Positions 1 to 23,100 of a stretch of 39,649 nt of DNA are shown piece by piece. Position 1 is the stretch's first letter; the number at the start of each line of letters is the position of its first letter. A model generated the notes under the pieces. That model did no database searches. It had not been told where the DNA came from and saw only the letters and a program-made list of their open reading frames with translations. Source of the stretch: a virus; IMG/VR virus record IMGVR_UViG_3300045988_106623, one strand, 5' to 3'. Made by a program: the position numbers and the translations under genes.

Positions 1-23
1 TTCTTCAGCAAGTTGAAGGACGC
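1..23. repeat. attL core (direct repeat of 39627..39649)
   Basis: ttcttcagcaagttgaaggacgc is identical at both ends. It reads FFSKLKDA in frame and is followed by LS-stop (tga at 31..33). Confidence 0.8.
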
Positions 24-50
24 ACTGAGCTGAGAACGGGTTGGAAAATG

Positions 51-90
51 GCCGCTTTGCCTTGCGGGAGTAGGGCTGAGCGGCTTTTTT
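51..90 (+). terminator. Rho-independent terminator following the reconstituted 3' end of the interrupted host gene
   Basis: Stem 51-63/72-84 (about 12 pairs including wobbles, 8-nt loop) followed by T6 at 85..90. It lies 18 nt after the tga at 31..33. Confidence 0.6.
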
Positions 91-91
91 C

Positions 92-129
92 GTTTTAACC
101 AGTTTTAACGGTTTTTAACCTGTTTTTAC
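92..129. repeat. Four phased GTTTT(T)A(A)C tracts at 10-11 bp spacing (candidate bent DNA or accessory-protein sites in the P' arm)
   Basis: gttttaac at 92 and 102, gtttttaac at 111, gtttttac at 122. The inverse motif GTTAAAAC recurs at 38340..38383. Confidence 0.5.
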
Positions 130-131
130 GG

Positions 132-158
132 AAAATGTGGGCAAAATGTGGGCAAAAA
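132..158. repeat. Tandem 2 x 11-mer AAAATGTGGGC; candidate integrase arm-type sites (P' arm)
   Basis: The 27-mer aaaatgtgggcaaaatgtgggcaaaaa is identical to 39537..39563 on the other side of the att core, in the same orientation. Confidence 0.5.
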
Positions 159-193
159 TCGAGCCCGCGAAGCCCTCTGCCACAACGCGAAAT

Positions 194-253
194 CGGCCCC
201 GTCCGGCAGCAGTCAAGCTCTGTGCGAGCTGTCTGCGATGCCGGACGGGGCCG
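194..253 (-). terminator. Long GC-rich stem-loop downstream of the holin (possible end of the late transcript)
   Basis: The 15-bp arm cggccccgtccggca (194..208) pairs with tgccggacggggccg (239..253). There is no clear U-run. Confidence 0.3.
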
Positions 254-265
254 AACTATGTGTGG

Positions 266-577
266 TCATGCGGCGCGGTCGAGGCGTTGTTTGATGGCGC
301 TGACGCCGATGAGCGCGCCGGCGAGGATGCCGAGCGCGTTGAGCGTGGTCACTATCGCGTCCACGTGAGTCCAACCCCATGCGGGGCCGACCGTGCCCAC
401 GAACACGGCGAGTGCGGGCAGGACGATGAGGCCGAGCCATTTGAGGATGTCGTAGACGCGGCTGGGGATGAGCCAGTCGGGCACGTCATGGGTGACGTCG
501 GCCGTCTCGGGGCAGTCGCTCACATCGACGCCGGGAAGCGTTTCGCCGGTGTCGGTCGTGTTTTTGTTGTCGGTCAT
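266..577 (-). CDS. Holin (two predicted transmembrane helices, charged C-terminus)
   Basis: 103 aa. Hydrophobic stretches WLGLIVLPALAVFVGTVGPAWGW and LNALGILAGALIGVSAI. Lies next to the endolysin. RBS ggagc precedes the ATG at 577. Confidence 0.6.
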   Translation of the reverse strand: MTDNKNTTDTGETLPGVDVSDCPETADVTHDVPDWLIPSRVYDILKWLGLIVLPALAVFVGTVGPAWGWTHVDAIVTTLNALGILAGALIGVSAIKQRLDRAA

Positions 578-605
578 GTTTTGCTCCGATCAAAAAAATG
601 GTGGT

Positions 606-635
606 GATGCCGCCATCGGGAGTAATGGCGGCATC
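606..635 (-). promoter_or_regulatory. Hairpin plus U7 between endolysin and holin (possible attenuator)
   Basis: 11-bp stem gatgccgccat/atggcggcatc with an 8-nt loop. On the minus strand it is followed after 9 nt by ttttttt, then the holin RBS. Confidence 0.3.
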
Positions 636-643
636 GGTTGGTT

Positions 644-1753
644 TTAGCGGCAGGTCACCACGTCACCGGGATAGTAGACGTTGATGTTGCCGGAGGGTAC
701 CGTGCATTGGCTGACGTTGTAGCCGTGGGAGGTGGCGAACTCCCATACGGTGTCGCCCCATTGAAGAACCTTGGAGACTCCGTGGGACGGCGCGGTTGTG
801 GAGCCGCCGCCGTAGGTTACGACATCGCCCACGTAGTAGCGGTTGATGTCACCGCTCGGCGTATGCCATGCGGACAGGGGCCAAGCATCATAGGCTACGG
901 CGAGTCCCCAGATGGTCTCGCCCCACTGCATGACGTGGCTGATGCCACCCGTGTTGGTGTCGGCCGGGGGAGTGCTCGGCTGCACGGGCGCGGGCGTTGC
1001 CGGGGCCGGGGCTGTGGAGCCGGTGGGGTTGGCGTACAGATCCCACTGCCATGCCTCGCCACGGAAAATGTTGAGGTCGATGGGACTCCACGTGTTGACG
1101 ACACCGGTGCCGCTGTACTGTCGCATGGCCTCGCCGTACGCGCCGATCATCCACGGATTGGCCTGATAGCCGGTCGGGCTCATGTTCGCGTATTGGGCGA
1201 TCCACAAACCGTATCGGTCGCGGATGTCCTGCGGGATGGTGCCGGCGACCGGGCCGGTGTACAGCAATGGGCGCACGCCGCCCGAGAGCCGTTCGCACTC
1301 CGCCATGAATCGGCGTACCCAACCCCAATCGCCCCACGCCGGATTATCGTCCATCTCCCAGTCGAGCGCCACGATGCCGTGACGCCAATAGTTGCTGGTG
1401 TTGCGATAGAAGAATTGGGCTTCCGCCTCCGGGTTGCCGCCCATCGCGTAATGGTAGAGGCCGAACTTTTTGCCGCTGGCCTGTGCCTGGGCGATCATGC
1501 GGTTGGCGTCCGTGTTGACGCCGGACACGAGGCAGTTGTTGTTGACTTGGCCCGTGCCCCATGTGGTGCCGACCACGATGAAATCGGCCTGCATGTTGTA
1601 CACGTCCGCGCCGCACTGCCAGTTGCTCATGTCCACGCCCTGCATGTCCGCGTGCGCGGTCGCCGGGAGCAGCATCATGCACACGGCGGCTGCCAGCGCG
1701 GTACCCTTGGCGAGCAGACGCTTCCACAACGGCTTGTCCTTGTTATTGACCAA
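644..1753 (-). CDS. Endolysin: signal peptide + GH25 muramidase + two C-terminal LysM-like repeats
   Basis: GVDMSNWQ... and ...LYHYA... are GH25-like motifs. There are two repeats of the V(M/L)QWG(E/D)T(I/V)W type, and the N-terminus is KRLLAKGTALAAAVCMMLLPATAHA. TTG start at 1753 was chosen because the homologous leader at 4835..4892 has ATG at that position. GTG at 1795 is the alternative. Confidence 0.8.
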   Translation of the reverse strand: MVNNKDKPLWKRLLAKGTALAAAVCMMLLPATAHADMQGVDMSNWQCGADVYNMQADFIVVGTTWGTGQVNNNCLVSGVNTDANRMIAQAQASGKKFGLYHYAMGGNPEAEAQFFYRNTSNYWRHGIVALDWEMDDNPAWGDWGWVRRFMAECERLSGGVRPLLYTGPVAGTIPQDIRDRYGLWIAQYANMSPTGYQANPWMIGAYGEAMRQYSGTGVVNTWSPIDLNIFRGEAWQWDLYANPTGSTAPAPATPAPVQPSTPPADTNTGGISHVMQWGETIWGLAVAYDAWPLSAWHTPSGDINRYYVGDVVTYGGGSTTAPSHGVSKVLQWGDTVWEFATSHGYNVSQCTVPSGNINVYYPGDVVTCR

Positions 1754-1810
1754 TGTTTTCCCCTTTCTCGGGATGGATTGTTGTTTGTGGCCCACGGTCG
1801 TGGGTCAGGA
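1751..1810 (-). repeat. Leader/translation-initiation block, copy b (homologous to 4835..4892)
   Basis: Shares the perfect 29-mer tgtttgtggcccacggtcgtgggtcagga, the RBS and the first codons (M)VNN with copy a. Confidence 0.7.
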
Positions 1811-1837
1811 TTATCGGGGCCCACTCGGGGCCGTCAA
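1810..1837 (-). promoter_or_regulatory. Sigma70-like promoter for the lysis genes (TTGACG-16-GATAAT on the minus strand)
   Basis: On the + strand, cgtcaa at 1832..1837 and attatc at 1810..1815 with a 16-nt spacer, directly after the terminator at 1840..1869. Confidence 0.45.
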
Positions 1838-1839
1838 TG

Positions 1840-1869
1840 GAAAAGCCCCACACGGAATGGTGTGGGGCT
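1840..1869 (-). terminator. Rho-independent terminator after the distal tail locus
   Basis: 10-bp stem agccccacac/gtgtggggct (1844..1853 / 1860..1869) with a 6-nt loop, followed on the minus strand by UUUU (1840..1843). Confidence 0.65.
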
Positions 1870-1873
1870 AGAA

Positions 1874-2206
1874 TCAGTCGATCTTGTACAGGCGGGGAGT
1901 GAACGTCTTATCGACCTCGCCCGTGGTGTTGACGAAAATGTTGCATTGGAGAGTGCCGGCCTTCAAGGTTTTCGGCCCATAGTTACGAGGTCCGAACACA
2001 TTTGCTCCTTCGCTCCCGTCGTCGTGGGAGATATGGGCTTGTATGCCCATCAGCCATGAATTGTTGCCCAGCGGCCAGTCCGTGGCGTCCATCGTGTACG
2101 TGCCCGCGTCCACATGGACGGAACATGTCAGGCTATCCCACGAGTCAACCTTTTGTGTGGTGGAGCCTTTGAACCGGTACGTGCCCGGCGATGGTTCCGT
2201 GACCAT
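1874..2206 (-). CDS. CBM-like beta-sandwich module C. No visible RBS; probably expressed only as a -1 fusion to 2266..2796
   Basis: The 110-aa ORF's frame is open upstream to the TGA at 2285..2287, which abuts the G8 tract. The upstream linker in that frame contains LANLYP, resembling SRNLLAYGP in the neighbouring module. Confidence 0.5.
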   Translation of the reverse strand: MVTEPSPGTYRFKGSTTQKVDSWDSLTCSVHVDAGTYTMDATDWPLGNNSWLMGIQAHISHDDGSEGANVFGPRNYGPKTLKAGTLQCNIFVNTTGEVDKTFTPRLYKID

Positions 2207-2265
2207 AACACCCGGGTCGGTGCCTAATGTTTTAGGCAGTCCGGTGACACGCGGATACAGGTTCG

Positions 2266-2796
2266 CTAGCTCATAGCCCCCCCCTCAAGGCTTGTGACAT
2301 CGGGTTTCATCCACTCGTGCGCGGTGTTCCCGAGTTCGAGTTGGATTTTCAGGTTGCCCGACACGCTGCCGGCCGTGACGCCGCCACGCAAGATGCGCAG
2401 CTCGACGCGTGTGGTCCCCTTGGGGATGGTGACCACGGTGTTGTTTTTCCCCTGATAGACGCCGCCGAGGCTATTCGCGTTGGCGTAGAGGCTGATGACC
2501 AGGTTTCCGGGCACATCGCCCGTGTAGGAGATGATGAGAGGCACGCCAACGATGCCTTCGGGCACGTCGAACTCCCAGCGCACGCCCTTGTGCAATGGCA
2601 CCGATTCGGTGCCGCTGCTGAAATCAAGCGACCCGTCCTGCGCCACGGTGACGGTCAGACCGTTGCCCTCGGCGGGACCGTAGGCGAGCAGGTTACGCGA
2701 CAATACGGTAATCGGCACGGTTTTCGTAATCTTGCCGGCGGTCAGTTTCAGACTCGTGGACCCCGGTTTGATACCGGTTATTGATAGTGCGCCCAT
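2266..2796 (-). CDS. C-terminal half of a Big_2 Ig-like domain + CBM-like module B
   Basis: Starts MGALSITGIKPGSTSLKLTAGKITKTVPITV (the second half of Big_2). Strong RBS aaaggagg. The G8 tract lies in codons 171-174. Confidence 0.7.
   Translation of the reverse strand: MGALSITGIKPGSTSLKLTAGKITKTVPITVLSRNLLAYGPAEGNGLTVTVAQDGSLDFSSGTESVPLHKGVRWEFDVPEGIVGVPLIISYTGDVPGNLVISLYANANSLGGVYQGKNNTVVTIPKGTTRVELRILRGGVTAGSVSGNLKIQLELGNTAHEWMKPDVTSLEGGAMS
2277..2284 (-). repeat. G8 homopolymer (C8 on the + strand) in slippery register G_GGG_GGG
   Basis: The minus strand reads ctt gag ggg ggg gct atg agc tag. The 12-mer TAGCCCCCCCCT is shared with 3265..3276. Confidence 0.9.
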
Positions 2797-2839
2797 ATTG
2801 GGGCCTCCTTTTTATGGTGAAGGCCCCAATATCGGGGCC
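2795..2839 (-). promoter_or_regulatory. Two mutually exclusive hairpins around the RBS/AUG of 2266..2796
   Basis: ggcccc(2822..2827)/ggggcc(2834..2839) forms a local hairpin after the upstream stop. Alternatively ggccccaatat (2822..2832) pairs with atattggggcc (2795..2805), covering part of the SD and the AU of the AUG. Confidence 0.35.
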
Positions 2840-3298
2840 TTAGTTGAGTTTCCTGAGAATTGGGGTGATGGTTGCGTCCACGGTCTTGCCGGGCGAGACA
2901 CTGACGAGCATCTGGTAGTCGCCCGCCGGGAGCGTCGCCTTGACCTTGCCATGCGAGAACAGGTCGATCCTGCCGTCCGTGGATTTGAGCTCGCAGAACG
3001 GGCCGACACCGTCGGCGATCGTGTGTTCGAGCGTGTACTCGCCGGCCGGCAGGTCCTGGGTGACGAGGATGGTCGCCCAGTCGGTCGCTGTGCCCTTCGC
3101 GTGTACCATGCCGTCGCCGGCTGCGGTGAACGTGATTCCGTTGCGCGTGGCGGGCAGGGTGGGCAGCACCCATTTGTTTCCCCATACACTGACCGGGATG
3201 GTCTTTACGATGCTGCCTGCGGTGATGGTGATGGAGGTGTCGCCCTCCTTGAGGGCGCGGACACTAGCCCCCCCCTTAAACGCTGTTGTTGTTGGCAT
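2840..3298 (-). CDS. C-terminal half of a Big_2 Ig-like domain + CBM-like module A
   Basis: MPTTTAFKGGASVRALKEGDTSITITAGSIVKTIPVSV followed by a domain of about 110 aa. ATG at 3298 with RBS aagggg. The longer 240-aa track ORF is an upstream shadow extension. Confidence 0.65.
   Translation of the reverse strand: MPTTTAFKGGASVRALKEGDTSITITAGSIVKTIPVSVWGNKWVLPTLPATRNGITFTAAGDGMVHAKGTATDWATILVTQDLPAGEYTLEHTIADGVGPFCELKSTDGRIDLFSHGKVKATLPAGDYQMLVSVSPGKTVDATITPILRKLN
3268..3275 (-). repeat. G8 homopolymer (C8 on the + strand) in codons 8-11 of 2840..3298
   Basis: The minus strand reads ttt aag ggg ggg gct agt. G7 or G9 would truncate the protein. Confidence 0.9.
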
Positions 3299-3309
3299 GA
3301 TATTGCCCC

Positions 3310-3861
3310 TTACTGTTGTCTGACTGATGCGAGACTCACATCCTTGATGGATGCCGTATACTCCTGCGATGCCGCATCGGGCAGGATCGTCACCTTGAGG
3401 TTCTTGCTCTCGCCGACGCGCAGGGTGATGTTGTCGATGGGTTTGCCGGAATCGTCCGTGACCTTGATGGACTCGGGCGCGTAGGCCGCGCTGATGGACA
3501 CGGCGGCGGAAGTGAAACCGTTGACCGTGGCCGTCACCAATATGGTTCCGCCATGCCGCCACGTGAGCGTGTTGCCCGAAACCGTGGCGGTGGAAGTGTC
3601 CCTGCTCGCGAACGTCACGTCCTTGGTGGTGAGCAGGTCGCCAACATGACCGTCCGCATACGTGGCTTTCGCCCCCAGTTTCAGGGTGCCGGATACGGCC
3701 AGAGACTTGGGCAACGGCTTGCCCTTATCATCCGTGATATTGACGGAGACGACCGTGTCCTTGTCGAGGGGCCACACGAGCTTGCCATTGAACATGGCGT
3801 TGTACGTGTGGCCTCCCATCAACGGTTTGCCGACACGTTTGCCGGCGTATAGGGCTGGCAT
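3310..3861 (-). CDS. Tail-associated protein: N-terminal segment + one complete Big_2 domain + N-terminal half of a second Big_2 domain
   Basis: The complete domain ends ...TATVSGNTLTWRHGGTILVTATVNGFTSAAVSISA. The second stops at ...LKVTILPDAASQEYTASIKDVSLASVRQQ*, in the middle of the fold. Confidence 0.65.
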   Translation of the reverse strand: MPALYAGKRVGKPLMGGHTYNAMFNGKLVWPLDKDTVVSVNITDDKGKPLPKSLAVSGTLKLGAKATYADGHVGDLLTTKDVTFASRDTSTATVSGNTLTWRHGGTILVTATVNGFTSAAVSISAAYAPESIKVTDDSGKPIDNITLRVGESKNLKVTILPDAASQEYTASIKDVSLASVRQQ

Positions 3862-3863
3862 GG

Positions 3864-4730
3864 TCAGGCTCCCTTCACGGTGGCCTTCTTGGCCTTGGCT
3901 GGCGTGGAGTCCTTGCCGGGTTCCTCCGTGGTTTCCTCGGTGGTGCCGGTGTCGGTGGTGCCTTCGGTGGTGCCGGTGGAAGGCAGTACGGTGGTCGCAG
4001 CCTCCGCCTTGTCCTTGACCGCCTGCACCGTCGAATCGATGGCGGCGATGGCCGTCTCGCCCTTCGCCGCGACCATGGAAGCGGTGTCGGCCACGGTCTG
4101 CGAATCGTTGGCGACGCTAGCCGCCAACGTGTTGGCGTTCGACGCGAGGATATTAAGGTCGGACTGGGTGGCGGTCGCGGAATCAGCCAAGGACTGTGCG
4201 CTCAGCATGGCGCTCCTAGCCAACGCGGCGTTCGTCTGCGCTTCGGCCGTGATGGACTCCAACGTGCTCATGGCCATAGCGGCCTTCATGGTCGTGGCGG
4301 TCTCGTCGAAGAGCACCACCGCATCCGGGTATCGGGCGGAAAGCGTCTCAGCCTCCGACTGGGTGGAAGCGTGGCGAACCTTCAGCAATTGGGAGCCCTG
4401 CATGTCCTTCGGGACGAACGTGCCCGCGTCAACCTCCACGAGGTCGGCGTATTCGACCTTGGTCTTGGAGTCCGGCACTTCGACGTAGCGCGTGTACGCT
4501 TGCGGCGAATCAGCCAACTCCACAACCTGCCACACGAAAGCGGGCGTCGTAGGCAGCAGGTCAACCGTCAGCTCACCCGTCTCGGACAAGTCCGCGTCGA
4601 ACGAGGCCGCGATGATGAGGTTCTTGTCCGCGTCGAAATGGCGACGTACCGGACGGAATCGCATCAGGCCGGTGACCGGGTCCAGGCCGCCGGTCTTCGG
4701 CTTCCTGATGCTGATATGGATTTGGGTCAT
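3864..4730 (-). CDS. Putative tail fibre/structural protein (Ala-rich coiled-coil centre, Thr/Glu-rich C-terminus)
   Basis: 288 aa with strong RBS aaggagg. Call rests on position in the distal tail region. No catalytic motif recognised. Confidence 0.4.
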   Translation of the reverse strand: MTQIHISIRKPKTGGLDPVTGLMRFRPVRRHFDADKNLIIAASFDADLSETGELTVDLLPTTPAFVWQVVELADSPQAYTRYVEVPDSKTKVEYADLVEVDAGTFVPKDMQGSQLLKVRHASTQSEAETLSARYPDAVVLFDETATTMKAAMAMSTLESITAEAQTNAALARSAMLSAQSLADSATATQSDLNILASNANTLAASVANDSQTVADTASMVAAKGETAIAAIDSTVQAVKDKAEAATTVLPSTGTTEGTTDTGTTEETTEEPGKDSTPAKAKKATVKGA

Positions 4731-4735
4731 GATTA

Positions 4736-4837
4736 TTACTCCTCCTTAATGGATTCGGTTATGGTTTCGGGGGCTACGTCCGGGCGAAGCTCGTCCGGCA
4801 GCGAGGGCTTGGGATGACGTTTCAAATTGTTGACCAT
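4736..4837 (-). CDS. Small ORF (33 aa) starting MVNN, behind leader copy a
   Basis: ATG at 4837 with RBS aaaaggg. The first four codons and the leader are homologous to the endolysin start. Below the ORF-track cutoff. Confidence 0.35.
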   Translation of the reverse strand: MVNNLKRHPKPSLPDELRPDVAPETITESIKEE

Positions 4838-4892
4838 GTTTCCCTTTTCTCTGGGATGGATATTGTTTGTGGCCCACGGTCGTGGGTCAGGA
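4835..4892 (-). repeat. Leader/translation-initiation block, copy a (homologous to 1751..1810)
   Basis: Same 29-mer plus flanking similarity. Contains the small hairpin cccac-ggtc-gtggg and overlaps the stop of 4887..5192. Confidence 0.7.
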
Positions 4893-5192
4893 CTGTCGTG
4901 GCGCTATCGGCGCGGATTGGATGTCATTGTTGAGCGATGTCCCGTGGCCGTTGCCGCCCAGGCTGTGATAGCTGTCGTAGAGGCGTTGGGAGCGTGATTT
5001 GAGGTCCTCGTCCGCCACTCCGTCGTGCTCGATGACCATTTCGCGGCGCAGGTCCTCCAACTGGCACAGCAGGAGCTCGCGCAGCCCGTTGACCATGGCT
5101 TTGCCCCATCGCCACATCAGGCCCAAAACCGTGGCCACTCCGCCACAGATAAAAGGCACGAGCCAATCGACGACGTGAGCGAGCAAAGACAT
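4887..5192 (-). CDS. Membrane protein (single N-terminal TM helix); function unknown, possibly lysis-related
   Basis: 101 aa. N-terminus WLVPFICGGVATVLGLMW. RBS aaaggag. Confidence 0.4.
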   Translation of the reverse strand: MSLLAHVVDWLVPFICGGVATVLGLMWRWGKAMVNGLRELLLCQLEDLRREMVIEHDGVADEDLKSRSQRLYDSYHSLGGNGHGTSLNNDIQSAPIAPRQS

Positions 5193-5214
5193 GGAAAAGC
5201 TCCTTTACGTTGGG

Positions 5215-5265
5215 AAAACCCACACGTTCGTCCCCGTTGGATAGGCCAACGGGCGTGTGGGTTTT
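5215..5265. terminator. Nested, bidirectional-looking stem-loop filling the gap between 4887..5192 and the recombinase gene
   Basis: Outer 12-bp stem aaaacccacacg/cgtgtgggtttt and inner 8-bp stem cccgttgg/ccaacggg. A/T runs are part of the outer stem on both sides. Confidence 0.5.
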
Positions 5266-5277
5266 CGGAGGTTGAAA

Positions 5278-6147
5278 ATGCTGTTACAAGAGTTTTGGAA
5301 CGACCGGTTTTGGCCGCATTGCACGCGGAATCTGCGTGAGAGCACGCGCGTGGGCTACGAGTCCGCGTGGCGGCTGCATGTCATGCCATGCTTCGGCGGC
5401 ATGGGTATGGACGCGATAAGCGTGGAGCTAGTGGACAAATGGCTTGCGAATTTCGACACTGCGGGCGCGGCACGCAAGGCATGGGCCGTATTGCGCGCGA
5501 TACTCAGGCGGGCTATCCGCTGGAACCTGTTGGACGTGGACATCACCAGACGCGACATCCAACTGCCGGCCAAACCTCATTACGAGCCGCGAATATTGAC
5601 CCTCCGTCAGCAGCGTGCACTGTTGCGGGGCTTTTACGGTCATCCGCTTGAGGCGTGGCTTATCTGTGCCGTCTCATGCGGACTCCGCACCGAAGAGGGC
5701 TACGGGCTTGAATGGTCGGATATTGACCTGCGCTCAGGTGTCCTGCACGTGGAGCGTGGCCTGCAATGGGTCGCCGGGCATGAGGCCGTCGTGCCGCCGA
5801 AAACCGAACTGTCCCGCCGCACGCTCCCGTTGCCGCGCTTCGCGGTCAAACGATTGCGCGAGCTCAGGCCACGCGAGGGGGGCCGACTCATCGGCACCCT
5901 CACCCCGCCGCAAGCCGCACGCCAATACAAGGCCTACTGCAAGCGGCATGATCTGCCGCATGTGCCCGCACGCAACCTGCGCCACTCATGGGCGACGAAC
6001 ACTCTGGCCGCCGGGGCTGACATCGCCATCGTGAGCAAAATGCTCGGCCACAGCGACATCAAAACCACCGCAAAGTACTACCTCAAACCGGATATCTCAG
6101 CCCTGCGAGACGCGCAACGCCTCTGGGAACGAGCCTTAACGGCCTGA
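5278..6147 (+). CDS. Tyrosine site-specific recombinase (shufflon invertase, Rci/Rin-like role)
   Basis: Shows ...CGLRTEEG..., NLRHSWATN and LGHSDIKTTAKYY (the R..HxxR..Y catalytic pattern). ATG at 5278 with RBS ggagg. Opposite strand to the tail genes and directly next to the repeat sites. Confidence 0.85.
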   Translation: MLLQEFWNDRFWPHCTRNLRESTRVGYESAWRLHVMPCFGGMGMDAISVELVDKWLANFDTAGAARKAWAVLRAILRRAIRWNLLDVDITRRDIQLPAKPHYEPRILTLRQQRALLRGFYGHPLEAWLICAVSCGLRTEEGYGLEWSDIDLRSGVLHVERGLQWVAGHEAVVPPKTELSRRTLPLPRFAVKRLRELRPREGGRLIGTLTPPQAARQYKAYCKRHDLPHVPARNLRHSWATNTLAAGADIAIVSKMLGHSDIKTTAKYYLKPDISALRDAQRLWERALTA

Positions 6148-6149
6148 AC

Positions 6150-6164
6150 GGGATTCCCTAACCC
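6150..6164 (+). repeat. Recombination site A (gggattccctaaccc), inverted relative to B, C and D
   Basis: Perfect 15-bp inverted repeat of 7462..7476. Confidence 0.8.
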
Positions 6165-6469
6165 AGACCGAAGTGCTGACGCTGATTAACTCCACTTACG
6201 GTACCGTCAAAGGCTACCGTCGCGGCTCGCTCGTCACGTTGCGCATCGACTGGAAGTCGTCGGCGTCCGGCGCGTGGAACACCGGCAATTTCGGAACCCT
6301 GCCCGAAAGCTGGCGTCCTCCAATGGACTTGAACTTCTCCTACGGCGGACGCGACGGCGCGAACCAGAAGATCATCAACGTAAACGCGAACGGAACCATG
6401 ACCTACGCCAATCAGGGCGGCACGCAGGGCACGGACGCGTTCGGCATGACCGTCTCATACGCGCTATGA
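6155..6469 (+). other. Silent RBP C-terminal cassette A' (104 aa from the SLT codons)
   Basis: tcc cta acc in the site is in frame with the track ORF 6173..6469. Contains LPESWRP, resembling IPKGFRP in the expressed cassette. Confidence 0.65.
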
Positions 6470-6520
6470 CCCGTGGGGTCACTGCAAGACAGTGCAACCG
6501 CCTGAGCCAGTGTCCCGAAG

Positions 6521-6847
6521 CTATGCGGCGGGCATCGGGTCGGCGGTCCTCCATACGCCGGTGCATCCCGCGTACGCGCTGTTCGGATTGCCAAGCATCG
6601 TGACGGTGCCATTGGCCTCGCCGTAACAGATGAATGTCGTTTCACCACCGAAAACGGCCACGGGCGTATTGACGGTGACGGGTCGATACCCTTCGGGGAG
6701 CTTCTCCTGAGCCTTCGTGTAATTGTTCTGCCCGCTACTGTTGAATTTTACGTTGCCACCCATGAAACAGATATCACCGATGCGCGTAAGCAAAATGCTG
6801 TCGCTGCTGTAAGGTACTCGCCACGTCGTAAAACGCTGGGTTAGGGA
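6521..6847 (-). other. Silent RBP C-terminal cassette B' (108 aa from the SLT codons)
   Basis: The frame is open from the site codons (6847) through track ORF 6521..6793. Contains LPEGYRP. No RBS or ATG of its own. Confidence 0.65.
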
Positions 6848-6848
6848 A
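6838..6848 (-). repeat. Recombination site B (core gggttagggaa)
   Basis: Shares ctgggttagggaa with the reverse complement of site A. Confidence 0.7.
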
Positions 6849-6850
6849 AA

Positions 6851-7144
6851 CTATTGCCTGTTCCAGATTGCGATCCAGCTTCCGAATATCGCGACCCTCC
6901 CGCACCAGCGGTTGTCTTTGGTGTTCCACAGGCGGAAGCGTATCTGGTTTACGTCGCTGGTATCCCAACGTTGTGCGGTGTACTCGCCGGCCTGGCCGAA
7001 ACCAGTGCCGAACGGCCCAATCGTGTAGGCCGCGTAATCGGCTTTCTTCCCGTTTGGGGATTGGACGTTGATGTAGAATGTGCCGTCATCATTCGTGGTG
7101 ATGGTATGGCCTCCGCACAGAATATACGGCATTCGGGTTAGGGA
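6851..7144 (-). other. Silent RBP C-terminal cassette C' (97 aa from the SLT codons), unrelated in sequence to the others
   Basis: The site codons tcc cta acc (7144..7136) are in frame with track ORF 6851..7132. Confidence 0.6.
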
Positions 7145-7145
7145 A
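7135..7145 (-). repeat. Recombination site C (core gggttagggaa)
   Basis: Lies 2 nt after the stop of the expressed RBP gene and immediately 5' of cassette C'. Confidence 0.7.
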
Positions 7146-7147
7146 AG

Positions 7148-7963
7148 CTACGCGGTAATCCAACAGCCGGATATACCGACGAATCGGCTGGTATATCCGG
7201 TGCCGTTCAACACCATTTTCCCCTCCGGCGTGCCGTAAAGGTAGAAACTGGTCGCGCCGCTGTTGTCGGTGCCGCGCATGACCGCGCGGGAATCGCCGGA
7301 CGGTCTGAAACCCTTCGGGATTGTCTCGTTGACGGATGTGTTGCTGGTCTGATTGAAATTGCTTGTCAGCGTGATATACGCGCAGGCGGTGACGATACGG
7401 CCGACACGAACCAGAGTGATATGCCTGTCGGAATACGGCATCTTGACTTGGCCCGTGACAGGGGTTAGGGAATCCCACACGTCGCTCATCGGCTTCAACA
7501 CGTTGAACAATGCGACTGGTGTGCCGATGGTGATGCCGTCCAGCGGGATGCGGTACAAGGGCATGTCGTAGGTGGTGCCCCCGTCCAACGGGCTGGTGGT
7601 GTTCACGGCGGGGTCGGTGGGCGTGCCCGTGGTGGGCGTGCCCCTGACCACGACCAGTTTCGCGCTCTCAACCGACTGCGAGCCCTTCGCATAGCGGCAT
7701 ACGATGAGATCGTTGCGTTTCTGACCCTGCGACCCGTTGGTGACGATCAGGTCCTCGGGCGTGCCCTGGCTGACGTGACGGCCCTGCATGACCAGTTCGC
7801 CCGTGCCGATGGTCACCTTGTTCGCCGAAACGACCGTAAGCTCGAACTTGTCGTGCACGTCGAGCACATAATCATCCAAGCCGAGAATGCCGGCGTTCAA
7901 ACCAGCGGCCTGTTCCGCCGTGGCGTGAGCCTTGTTCGCGTGCCCGGTGACGAGTTCAACCAT
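7148..7963 (-). CDS. Receptor-binding/tail fibre protein: constant N-terminal part (7963..7472) joined at site D to the expressed cassette D'
   Basis: 271 aa. Site D encodes WDSLTP inside the ORF. Last gene of the tail block. Confidence 0.65.
   Translation of the reverse strand: MVELVTGHANKAHATAEQAAGLNAGILGLDDYVLDVHDKFELTVVSANKVTIGTGELVMQGRHVSQGTPEDLIVTNGSQGQKRNDLIVCRYAKGSQSVESAKLVVVRGTPTTGTPTDPAVNTTSPLDGGTTYDMPLYRIPLDGITIGTPVALFNVLKPMSDVWDSLTPVTGQVKMPYSDRHITLVRVGRIVTACAYITLTSNFNQTSNTSVNETIPKGFRPSGDSRAVMRGTDNSGATSFYLYGTPEGKMVLNGTGYTSRFVGISGCWITA
7462..7476 (-). repeat. Recombination site D (gggttagggaatccc) inside the RBP gene
   Basis: In frame (tcc at 7471..7469). Perfect inverted partner of site A. 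Confidence 0.8.
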
Positions 7964-8201
7964 TCTGCTTGCCTCCGTTCTTCTTCCATGATTCGAAGCT
8001 GTTGTCGGCGTCCCTGAGACGGTTGACGTATTCCTGGTGGCAGTTGGAGCAGAAGTAGTAGTCGTGTTGGTTGCCGTCGGCGTCGAGGCGTTGCACGTCC
8101 CACCAGTCGTTTTTCAGGGCGTCCGCGTTCGATGGGGTGTACCAGGCGAATCTTCCGCATCGGTCGCATTCGGCGACGATGCAGTCGTCGTTCTTGGCCA
8201 T
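7956..8201 (-). CDS. Small Cys-rich (zinc-ribbon-like) protein in the tail module
   Basis: 81 aa with CDRCG ... CSNCH. Overlaps the RBP start by 8 nt. Confidence 0.5.
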   Translation of the reverse strand: MAKNDDCIVAECDRCGRFAWYTPSNADALKNDWWDVQRLDADGNQHDYYFCSNCHQEYVNRLRDADNSFESWKKNGGKQNG

Positions 8202-22991: not shown

Positions 22992-23026
22992 GATGCCGTC
23001 ACCCCGCAATCATTGGAGAATAGGTG

Positions 23027-23100
23027 TCCCTCGCCTCGGATTCGAACCGAGACTGTATCGGACTTGAATCGGATGCCTCTGCTGGTTGGGCTAGCGAGGG
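23027..23100 (-). tRNA. tRNA-like gene with an irregular D arm and a non-canonical anticodon arm (anticodon ambiguous: CAA or UCA)
   Basis: Perfect 7-bp acceptor stem (CCCTCGC/GCGAGGG) and perfect T arm CTCGG-TTCGAAT-CCGAG. The anticodon stem ATCCG/CCGAT has a C.C mismatch, and the loop is 8 nt (ATTCAAGT), or 6 nt if the A-T closes. No CCA is encoded. Confidence 0.5.

Follow-up and report, generated by a model that had tools for sequence, protein, structure and literature searches.

Probable poly-G phase variation between one- and two-module forms of a predicted tail-fiber-like protein in a Bifidobacterium prophage

Organization of the locus

The window analyzed here is IMG/VR virus record IMGVR_UViG_3300045988_106623, a stretch of 39,649 nucleotides, and the feature under study is a run of eight G residues (tract B) near the 3′ end of one of its genes (gene B). 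The window is a complete prophage (~39 kb, 61% G+C) whose late genes are encoded on the minus strand. Proteins identical to those of the region are found in Bifidobacterium longum genomes as well as in numerous assemblies of gut metagenomes, and the prophage end adjoins dnaJ/hrcA. Together, these two observations place the window among the dnaJ2-integrated bifidoprophages (Mavrich et al. 2018, PMC6109161). In the INPHARED collection of deposited phage genomes, no match was found to positions 1800..3900 (blastn) or to the fused form of the gene B protein described below (tblastn).

In the 5′ to 3′ direction of the minus strand, the gene for the receptor-binding protein (RBP), the Rin shufflon and a tyrosine recombinase (7963..5257) are followed by a 101-residue gene, a 288-residue gene and the gene for a 183-residue protein. 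These are followed by gene A, gene B, a 110-residue open reading frame (ORF), a terminator hairpin, a GH25 endolysin gene and a holin gene (Table 1). Gene B is located between the RBP/shufflon region and the lysis cassette. The 110-residue ORF is part of a coding region to be referred to as module 2, and because the terminator lies just after the module 2 stop codon, the transcription unit includes module 2.

Table 1. Features of the gene A/gene B region in the window
Feature	Coordinates	Strand	Description
Poly-G tract B (G8)	2277..2284	-	Linker between modules 1 and 2 of the 307-residue gene; one base short of in-frame here
Gene B, short form (176 residues)	2266..2796	-	N-terminal Big_2 Ig-like half and jelly-roll module 1; PHROG 35081
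Module 2 coding region (133 codons, GGGYELANLYPR...LYKID)	1874..2284	-	-1 frame; the 110-residue ORF (1874..2206) is its 3′ part
TGA closing the -1 frame	2285..2287	-	Directly 5′ of tract B
Intrinsic-terminator-like hairpin	1844..1869	-	10-bp stem and T run, 5 nt past the module 2 stop
Poly-G tract A (G8)	3268..3275	-	Codons 8-10 of gene A; in frame (ON) here
Gene A (152 residues)	2840..3298	-	Poly-G leader, C-terminal Big_2 half, and jelly-roll module homologous to module 2 of gene B; phrog_35108 (1.8e-58)
183-residue Ig-like protein	3310..3861	-	Putative stalk; its C-terminus is the first half of Big_2 only
288-residue protein	3864..4730	-	First gene of the block; phrog_28754; weak match to phrog_6614, minor tail protein (3.9e-4)
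Hairpin between gene A stop and gene B start	2789..2838	-	-32.9 kcal/mol, z = -6.6

Reading frames at the junction

The last codons of gene B are CTT (2289-2287), GAG, GGG, GGG, GCT, ATG, AGC and the stop codon TAG (2268-2266). The eight G residues, which appear as C8 on the plus strand, are the last base of GAG, the two GGG codons and the first base of GCT, and the zero frame terminates four codons past the tract. In the -1 frame, the TGA codon directly 5′ of the run is followed by GGG GGG GGC TAT GAG CTA GCG AAC CTG, and this frame remains open through the ATG at 2206 to the stop codon at 1876..1874. Both frames are open over 16 nt, or over 19-22 nt if the stop codons are counted. No ATG, GTG or TTG codon is found in the -1 frame between the TGA and the ATG at 2206, and the 18 nt preceding this ATG (ggcaccgacccgggtgtt) contain no Shine-Dalgarno-like motif.

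An earlier note on this DNA, made from the letters alone, had drawn attention to this site. Direct reading confirms its description of the end of the 176-residue gene with the G8 run in register G_GGG_GGG, of the TGA just 5′ of the run with an open -1 frame beyond it, of a 110-residue ORF that lacks a Shine-Dalgarno sequence, and of the zero-frame stop four codons after the run. The shift window of 21 nt that it gave is approximately right when compared with the lengths measured above.

Addition of one G to tract B produces a protein of exactly 307 residues, the same length as homologs in public data, and the fusion of the 176- and 110-residue ORFs that the note had proposed has natural counterparts. 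The junction of this fused form reads SLEGGGYELANLYPR. The junction peptide expected of the long form is EGGGYELANLYPR, or (K)PDVTSLEGGGYELANLYPR with the preceding lysine, and the C-terminus of the short form is ...SLEGGAMS. The window carries the short state, with the tract one G below the in-frame length.

One gene with two modules

The fused protein matches more than 120 protein clusters in public data, with lengths of 305-309 residues (316 residues in one cluster), 90-98% identity and 99-100% coverage. The junctions in these clusters have the form SLEGG(G)(G)YELANLYPR. The Met residue of the 110-residue ORF is often replaced by Val, Thr or Ile in relatives (for example DPGVVVTEP and APGITVTAP), and the stand-alone start of this ORF is therefore not conserved. 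Stand-alone module 2 products form a cluster of 669 members at 90% identity, with lengths of 110, 117, 141/142 and 85 residues.

The sequence comparisons indicate that the 176- and 110-residue ORFs are one 307-residue gene, split at the homopolymer. Module 2 is predicted to be made only as the C-terminus of the 307-residue fusion and, having no start of its own, to be silent when it is out of frame. For annotation, this would mean that hundreds of database entries of 174-176 residues and of 110, 117 or 142 residues are phase variants of a single gene and not separate genes.

An AlphaFold2 (AF2) model of a fused homolog, with 98% sequence identity, has a mean predicted local distance difference test score (pLDDT) of 70.9. 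The model contains an N-terminal β-hairpin, a β-sandwich corresponding to module 1, a linker around the Gly run that is modeled with low confidence (residues 165-177), and a second β-sandwich corresponding to module 2 (pLDDT 83-91). A search of the Protein Data Bank (PDB) with Foldseek finds tandem jelly-roll binding domains, including a CBM22 tandem, collagen-binding domains, CUB tandems and SGBP-B, at low template modeling scores (TM-scores) of 0.2-0.37. The best matches in BFVD are tail fiber, minor tail and receptor-binding proteins, and the TM-scores are again just 0.2-0.37.

Among the PHROGs, module 1 belongs to phrog_35081, and module 2 as well as the module of gene A belong to phrog_35108, both families of unknown function. 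The separate 176- and 110-residue products have no match in Pfam, and a sequence search of the PDB gave nothing significant. Based on the structural matches and the position of the gene, the gene B product is predicted to be a tail-fiber-like protein, with a putative location in the virion.

Variation in tract length among relatives

A total of 79 related loci were recovered from IMG/VR, and 73 of them carry the junction tract. The length of tract B among these 73 loci ranges from G6 to G11 (one locus with G6, 7 with G7, 14 with G8, 32 with G9, 15 with G10 and 4 with G11). All three reading phases are present, the tract being in frame in 26 loci, one base short in 24 (the state of the window) and one base long in 23, a distribution that is indistinguishable from uniform (chi-square, p = 0.91). 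The earlier note had proposed a comparison of tract length in related prophages, and had named a permanent fusion of the two ORFs in related genomes as the pattern that would speak against its suggestion. The comparison reveals a variable tract instead, with 26 of the 73 relatives in frame and the rest out of frame.

Tract length also differs between loci that are otherwise the same. Of 5 pairs whose 850-nt flanks are 100% identical, 3 differ in the length of the tract, as do 7 of 12 pairs with flanks that are at least 99.5% identical. The module 2 frame is fully open, over 131 codons (114 codons in an alternative module 2 allele), in all 47 of the out-of-frame relatives. A G8 allele identical to that of the window, along with its 176- and 110-residue gene calls, was recovered on 12 independent contigs (ENA, JGI and Logan assemblies). 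An exact-pattern scan of JGI metagenomes recovered only two loci.

Three of the contigs are irregular at the tract. One of them (L058) starts exactly at its G10 tract (position 1), the second (L028) ends shortly after the tract, and the third (L020) has G13 at the junction (2557). The break in L058 and the G13 run in L020 are compatible with a tract that varies within the sample and at which assemblers break.

A direct comparison is provided by two B. longum isolates (NCBI assemblies GCA_028315065.1 and GCA_028313635.1), which have no mismatches over the 20.5 kb compared. The two isolates differ in three ways only, in tract B, in tract A and in a 706-bp inversion of the Rin shufflon. Tract B is G10 plus TAT in one isolate, which is in frame and encodes 307 residues, and G11 in the other, which gives products of 175 and 142 residues. 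Tract A is G10 in one isolate, with a truncated product, and G9 in the other, with a product of 152 residues. Judged from the sequences, this difference between isolates is what phase variation predicts, and neither decay nor random sequencing error readily accounts for it.

A second tract and maintenance of the homopolymer

The earlier note had overlooked a twin G8 run in the neighboring gene, tract A (Table 1). The leader of gene A reads MPTTTAFKGG, and the length of tract A in relatives varies from G6 to G11, with the gene ON in 10 loci and OFF in 16. The product of gene A has 152 residues in the ON state vs 10-31 residues in the OFF state. All four combinations of the states of tract A and tract B are found among relatives.

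Tracts A and B are the sole G/C runs of at least 7 nt in the 39.6-kb window, and both are located on the coding strand of adjacent genes. The GGG codon makes up 8.7% of Gly codons, and GGG-GGG is found in none of the 53 other Gly-Gly dicodons (14 genes). Resampling of synonymous codons in 17 phage genes (19.5 kb) gives an expectation of 0.08 runs of at least 8 G residues, and the probability of two or more such runs is 0.003. The scarcity of such runs, the rarity of GGG and the resampling bear out the view, put forward in the note, that the G8 site is more than a chance occurrence. In the related loci, which total 743 kb, these two kinds of site account for about 112 of the 118 G/C runs of at least 7 nt (about 95%).

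The tract is also present in other species. A scan of GTDB species representatives yielded a sole locus, a B. platyrrhinorum prophage in which a gene B homolog with 46% identity has G9 at the same junction (LAGGGFELANLWP). This prophage (strain SMA15; L001) contains poly-G tracts at 5398, 5998, 6986 and 7382 (G10, G10, G9 and G10, respectively), all within 2 kb, and no other G run of at least 6 nt is found in the 13-kb locus. The three G10 tracts are each located 5-6 codons into cassette genes, with the leaders MSESFRGGG, MGEAFRGGG and MSETFRGGG. Annotated proteins of B. reuteri, B. platyrrhinorum and Bifidobacterium sp. UTCIF-3 likewise include fused as well as truncated forms. The codon statistics and the cross-species comparison indicate that the homopolymer is under selection at the nucleotide level, being kept against codon usage across species.

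The first of the B. platyrrhinorum leaders has overlapping ATG and GTG starts in different frames. As a result, two of the three tract phases could be productive for this gene.

Probable phase variation at tract B

Tract B is probably a contingency locus, at which slipped-strand phase variation of the DNA, and not programmed ribosomal frameshifting, changes the number of tail-fiber-like binding modules. The attributes of such a locus are found here, namely a repeat of at least about 7 nt within an ORF, length polymorphism in near-clonal genomes, a switch in frame and product, and a repeat that is kept by selection. The earlier note had described the site as typical of recoding or phase variation; phase variation stands, and programmed ribosomal recoding does not. 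Among the routes to the long form that it listed, a change in tract length (G8 to G9) is favored by the range from G6 to G11, the three phases and the identical isolates that differ in tract length. The route by a -1 ribosomal slip is disfavored, as the out-of-frame arrangement is not conserved and the downstream RNA fold is unexceptional (z = 0.04).

In the proposed mechanism, slipped-strand mispairing during DNA replication would add or remove single G residues. The full gene product would consist of half of a Big_2 Ig-like domain followed by jelly-roll module 1, with a linker of Gly residues from the poly-G tract leading to jelly-roll module 2. The in-frame tract lengths would give this 307-residue protein with two modules. 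Either out-of-frame length would lead to a stop codon a few codons past the tract, and hence to a protein of 174-176 residues with one module, module 2 remaining silent. Tract A would be a plain ON/OFF switch of gene A, set to ON in the window.

The tracts, together with the Rin shufflon a few kb away, would make the phage population a stochastic mixture of tail-tip variants. With a second, homopolymer-based switch beside the shufflon, any lysate or lysogen culture would be such a mixture. The mixture presumably serves as bet-hedging on adsorption or host range. Switching is expected to be reversible within a single culture, and the intact module 2 in all OFF copies provides indirect support for this.

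Bifidobacteria are key commensals of the infant gut. Their phages have proved difficult to propagate, as permissive hosts are not easily identified (Mavrich et al. 2018, PMC6109161). Erratic plaque formation could result from a mixture of tail-tip variants, which would also shape the dynamics of phages and hosts in the gut.

Several points weigh against this interpretation. With the three phases equally frequent, resident prophages show no sign that the long form is selected for, and the same equality would also fit a tract that is merely tolerated. The tract lengths were read from assemblies, and some of the length differences could be homopolymer errors of sequencing or assembly, especially in the 454-era isolate genomes among the IMG/VR contigs. 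The proposed virion location and receptor binding are based on weak structural similarity (TM-scores of 0.2-0.37) and gene position only. Moreover, the ribosome or RNA polymerase could slip at a low level on this tract, in addition to the switch in the DNA.

Alternative explanations

Transcriptional slippage is the alternative that survives best, and it is unlikely. RNA polymerase would stutter on the G8-G11 tracts, each genotype would yield both proteins, and the length of the DNA tract would tune their ratio. A tract of 8-11 nt is in principle long enough for such stuttering, and the equal tolerance of all DNA phases with an always intact module 2 is what would be expected if slippage in the RNA rescued each phase. 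However, a third of the relatives are simply in frame, and DNA-level switching is observed directly between identical isolates. The known bacterial cases of transcriptional slippage, moreover, mostly involve A/T runs in a fixed out-of-frame arrangement. Transcriptional slippage may contribute, though it is not needed to explain the data.

It is very unlikely that the window has captured a simple inactivating frameshift in a decaying prophage, with the 307-residue gene broken and module 2 on its way to becoming a pseudogene. The window does carry an out-of-frame allele of a gene whose fused form is common elsewhere, and prophages often accumulate such lesions. However, two thirds of the 73 relatives are out of frame, in both directions, and none of them has a second lesion in the 393-nt module 2. 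In addition, the homopolymer is kept against codon usage across species, the second tract behaves likewise, and identical isolates differ at the tracts.

An artifact of sequencing or assembly, such that the true tract is G9 and the split is not real, appears slightly less probable still. Homopolymers are error-prone on several platforms, and some of the contigs break at the tract (L058 and L028). On the other hand, the same G8 allele and the same 176- and 110-residue pair are found on the 12 contigs, which are from different samples and assemblers, and also in the scan of JGI metagenomes. Tract lengths span six values, and errors would not be located at two sites alone with a 20.5-kb flank free of differences.

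Programmed -1 ribosomal frameshifting on G_GGG_GGG, by which a fixed fraction of ribosomes would slip to produce the 307-residue fusion in the manner of the tail assembly chaperone G/GT, has the least to recommend it: the zero-frame sequence ga-G GGG GGG formally fits X_XXY_YYZ, the rare GGG codon (8.7%) could favor pausing, and the zero-frame stop is four codons on, but the fit holds only in the allele class that is one nucleotide short, 26 of the 73 relatives are in frame and a further 23 are in the +1-nt state, beyond rescue by a -1 slip, and no stimulator is evident, the 121 nt from the site folding at -42.2 kcal/mol vs a shuffle mean of -42.3 kcal/mol (z = 0.04) and Rfam giving no match, in a search for frameshift stimulators, over positions 1..8000 of the window.

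Comparison with known systems

Poly-G contingency genes are well known in bacteria such as Campylobacter, Neisseria and Haemophilus, and the 7C tract in glpK of Mycobacterium tuberculosis is an example in which actinobacteria tolerate and exploit homopolymer tracts. The locus described here resembles bacterial homopolymer phase variation in the proposed slipped-strand mispairing in a coding run, with reversible frameshifts. The bacterial contingency genes are chromosomal genes of the host, whereas the tract here is phage-borne and would alter the domain composition of a virion-type protein.

In the lambda G/GT type of arrangement, overlapping frames in the late operon give a short product and a C-terminally extended product from a slippery run, with a fixed out-of-frame arrangement and a fixed ratio. 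In contrast, the phase at tract B is not conserved, and the site is without a stimulator.

Hypermutable poly-G tracts have been described in the Campylobacter Fletchervirus (Sorensen et al. 2021, Cell Rep 35:109214; summarized in PMC12633550). According to that summary, tracts of 7-11 G residues are located in receptor-binding/tail genes of these phages, and produce sub-populations with different tail proteins as bet-hedging against variable host surfaces, similar to what is proposed here. As summarized there, the Fletchervirus are virulent myoviruses, and their low-GC Gram-negative host has poly-G switches of its own, whereas the present prophage is temperate and siphovirus-like, and its host is a high-GC actinobacterium. 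One of the tracts here is located in an inter-domain linker, and would toggle between a long and a short isoform, instead of the whole-gene ON/OFF switching in that account. A further difference from the Fletchervirus as summarized is that split Ig-domain cassettes and a tyrosine-recombinase shufflon are found alongside the tracts here, and the present case is known from sequence alone.

Contingency loci in coliphages T2/T4 and other phages have been reported in a recent preprint (Gomez, Barrick & Waters 2025, PMC12633550). As proposed for tract B, homopolymers within ORFs undergo reversible frameshifts by polymerase slippage and generate population heterogeneity. The T2/T4 loci are mostly short A/T runs of at least 6 nt in defense-evasion or accessory genes, and repeats are under-represented in tail fiber genes. 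In comparison, long G runs are found here at fixed positions in tail-fiber-like genes across species.

The Rin shufflon (Mavrich et al. 2018, PMC6109161) belongs to the same phage group and is likewise a system for stochastic diversification of a tail receptor-binding protein. It differs in that it operates by site-specific inversion at rix sites by a tyrosine recombinase, and on a different gene (RBP, 7148..7963). The text of PMC6109161 contains no mention of homopolymers, frameshifts or slippage, and full-text literature searches found no description of homopolymer phase variation in bifidophages.

The comparison suggests that the mechanism is as in the known cases, and that what is new is the phage lineage and host phylum, the linker tract that toggles the number of modules, and the link with split Ig cassettes and a shufflon. 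The range of phage-borne poly-G contingency loci (Campylobacter phages and T-even phages) would thereby be widened to include temperate phages whose hosts are high-GC Gram-positive bacteria. The use of the tract would also be unusual, in that the number of binding modules is toggled through an inter-domain linker.

Cassette architecture and the neighboring shufflon

The 183-residue protein and the products of genes A and B appear to share a split Ig-like domain. The C-terminus of the 183-residue protein alone corresponds to positions 11-50 of the Pfam Big_2 profile (PF02368). When this protein is joined in silico to the N-terminus of gene A or gene B, one Big_2 match is obtained, covering positions 11-72 or 11-79 of 79, respectively, with 36-37 bits. 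A single-sequence AF2 model of the chimera of the 183-residue protein and gene A has a pLDDT of only 45 and is uninformative.

In the leader-type cassettes (gene A and the three B. platyrrhinorum genes with G10 leaders), the stop codon, ribosome-binding site, start codon and poly-G leader would all be located within a loop of the split Ig domain. Gene B has the same half-domain at its start, with a leader that lacks poly-G. The split profile suggests that the cassette proteins may dock on the 183-residue protein by complementation of the split Ig domain.

The hairpin at 2789..2838 sequesters the Shine-Dalgarno sequence and the ATG of gene B by pairing them with nucleotides immediately past the gene A stop codon, and the same sequence is found in about 30 relatives. 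It may couple the translation of genes A and B.

The alleles of modules 1 and 2 are combined mosaically around the conserved junction, and the poly-G tracts may also be recombination joints. In one locus (L050, 2876..2935), a deletion between the two poly-G tracts has brought the leader tract of gene A directly next to module 2 (MPTTTAFRGG, then YELANLYPR). In four others (L010, L027, L055 and L061), ACTAGAACCCGCC is present in place of the normal sequence upstream of a tract.

These features can be assembled into a broader model of combinatorial tail-tip display in Bifidobacterium prophages, which is offered tentatively and is rather doubtful as a whole. In this model, a stalk would carry cassettes, each with one or two jelly-roll modules, docked through split Ig domains, the poly-G tracts would stochastically select the cassettes and the number of modules, the hairpin would couple translation, and the tracts would serve as joints for exchange. 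The tract sites concerned are the cassette leaders (M-x-x-x-F-R/K-G-G-G) and one inter-module linker. If the model is correct, one temperate phage would possess two mechanistically independent systems for receptor diversification, the other being the Rin shufflon.

The 3-kb block of the 288-residue gene, the 183-residue gene, gene A and gene B is flanked by a 75-nt direct repeat with 80% identity (1757..1831 and 4839..4913). Each copy contains a short hairpin and is located upstream of the next gene start, that of the endolysin and that of the 288-residue gene, respectively. The repeat may be a duplicated regulatory element or a scar of module insertion.

A tRNA-like gene is present at 23026..23100 on the minus strand (Rfam tRNA, 32.9 bits). 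The gene has an anticodon loop of 8 nt (AUUCAAGU), and is assigned a four-base anticodon, UCAA, by ARAGORN. It was considered as a frameshift suppressor, as UUGA precedes the tract (cCTTGAg), and was rejected. The UUGA is out of register with the zero frame, a G8 allele would still be out of frame after quadruplet (+1) reading, and UUGA is not conserved, relatives having CTTAGG, CTTAAG or TTTGAT. The gene could encode a suppressor that reads a quadruplet or UGA/UUG, or else a degenerate tRNA, and is judged to have no bearing on the poly-G site. In some loci, 313-348 codons are open upstream, but the long fusions to upstream genes that these suggest were also rejected, as stop-free out-of-frame read-through in GC-rich DNA.

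The Rin-type shufflon of the window spans 5257..7476, with the tyrosine recombinase at 5257..6147 on the plus strand. The repeat GGGTTAGGGAA is found at 6838, 7135 and 7462, and an inverted copy is located at 6150-6164. The C-terminal cassettes are at 6173..6469 on the plus strand, and at 6521..6793 and 6851..7132 on the minus strand, beside the RBP gene, which is also on the minus strand. It is in this shufflon that the 706-bp inversion separates the two otherwise identical B. longum isolates (L087 and L088).

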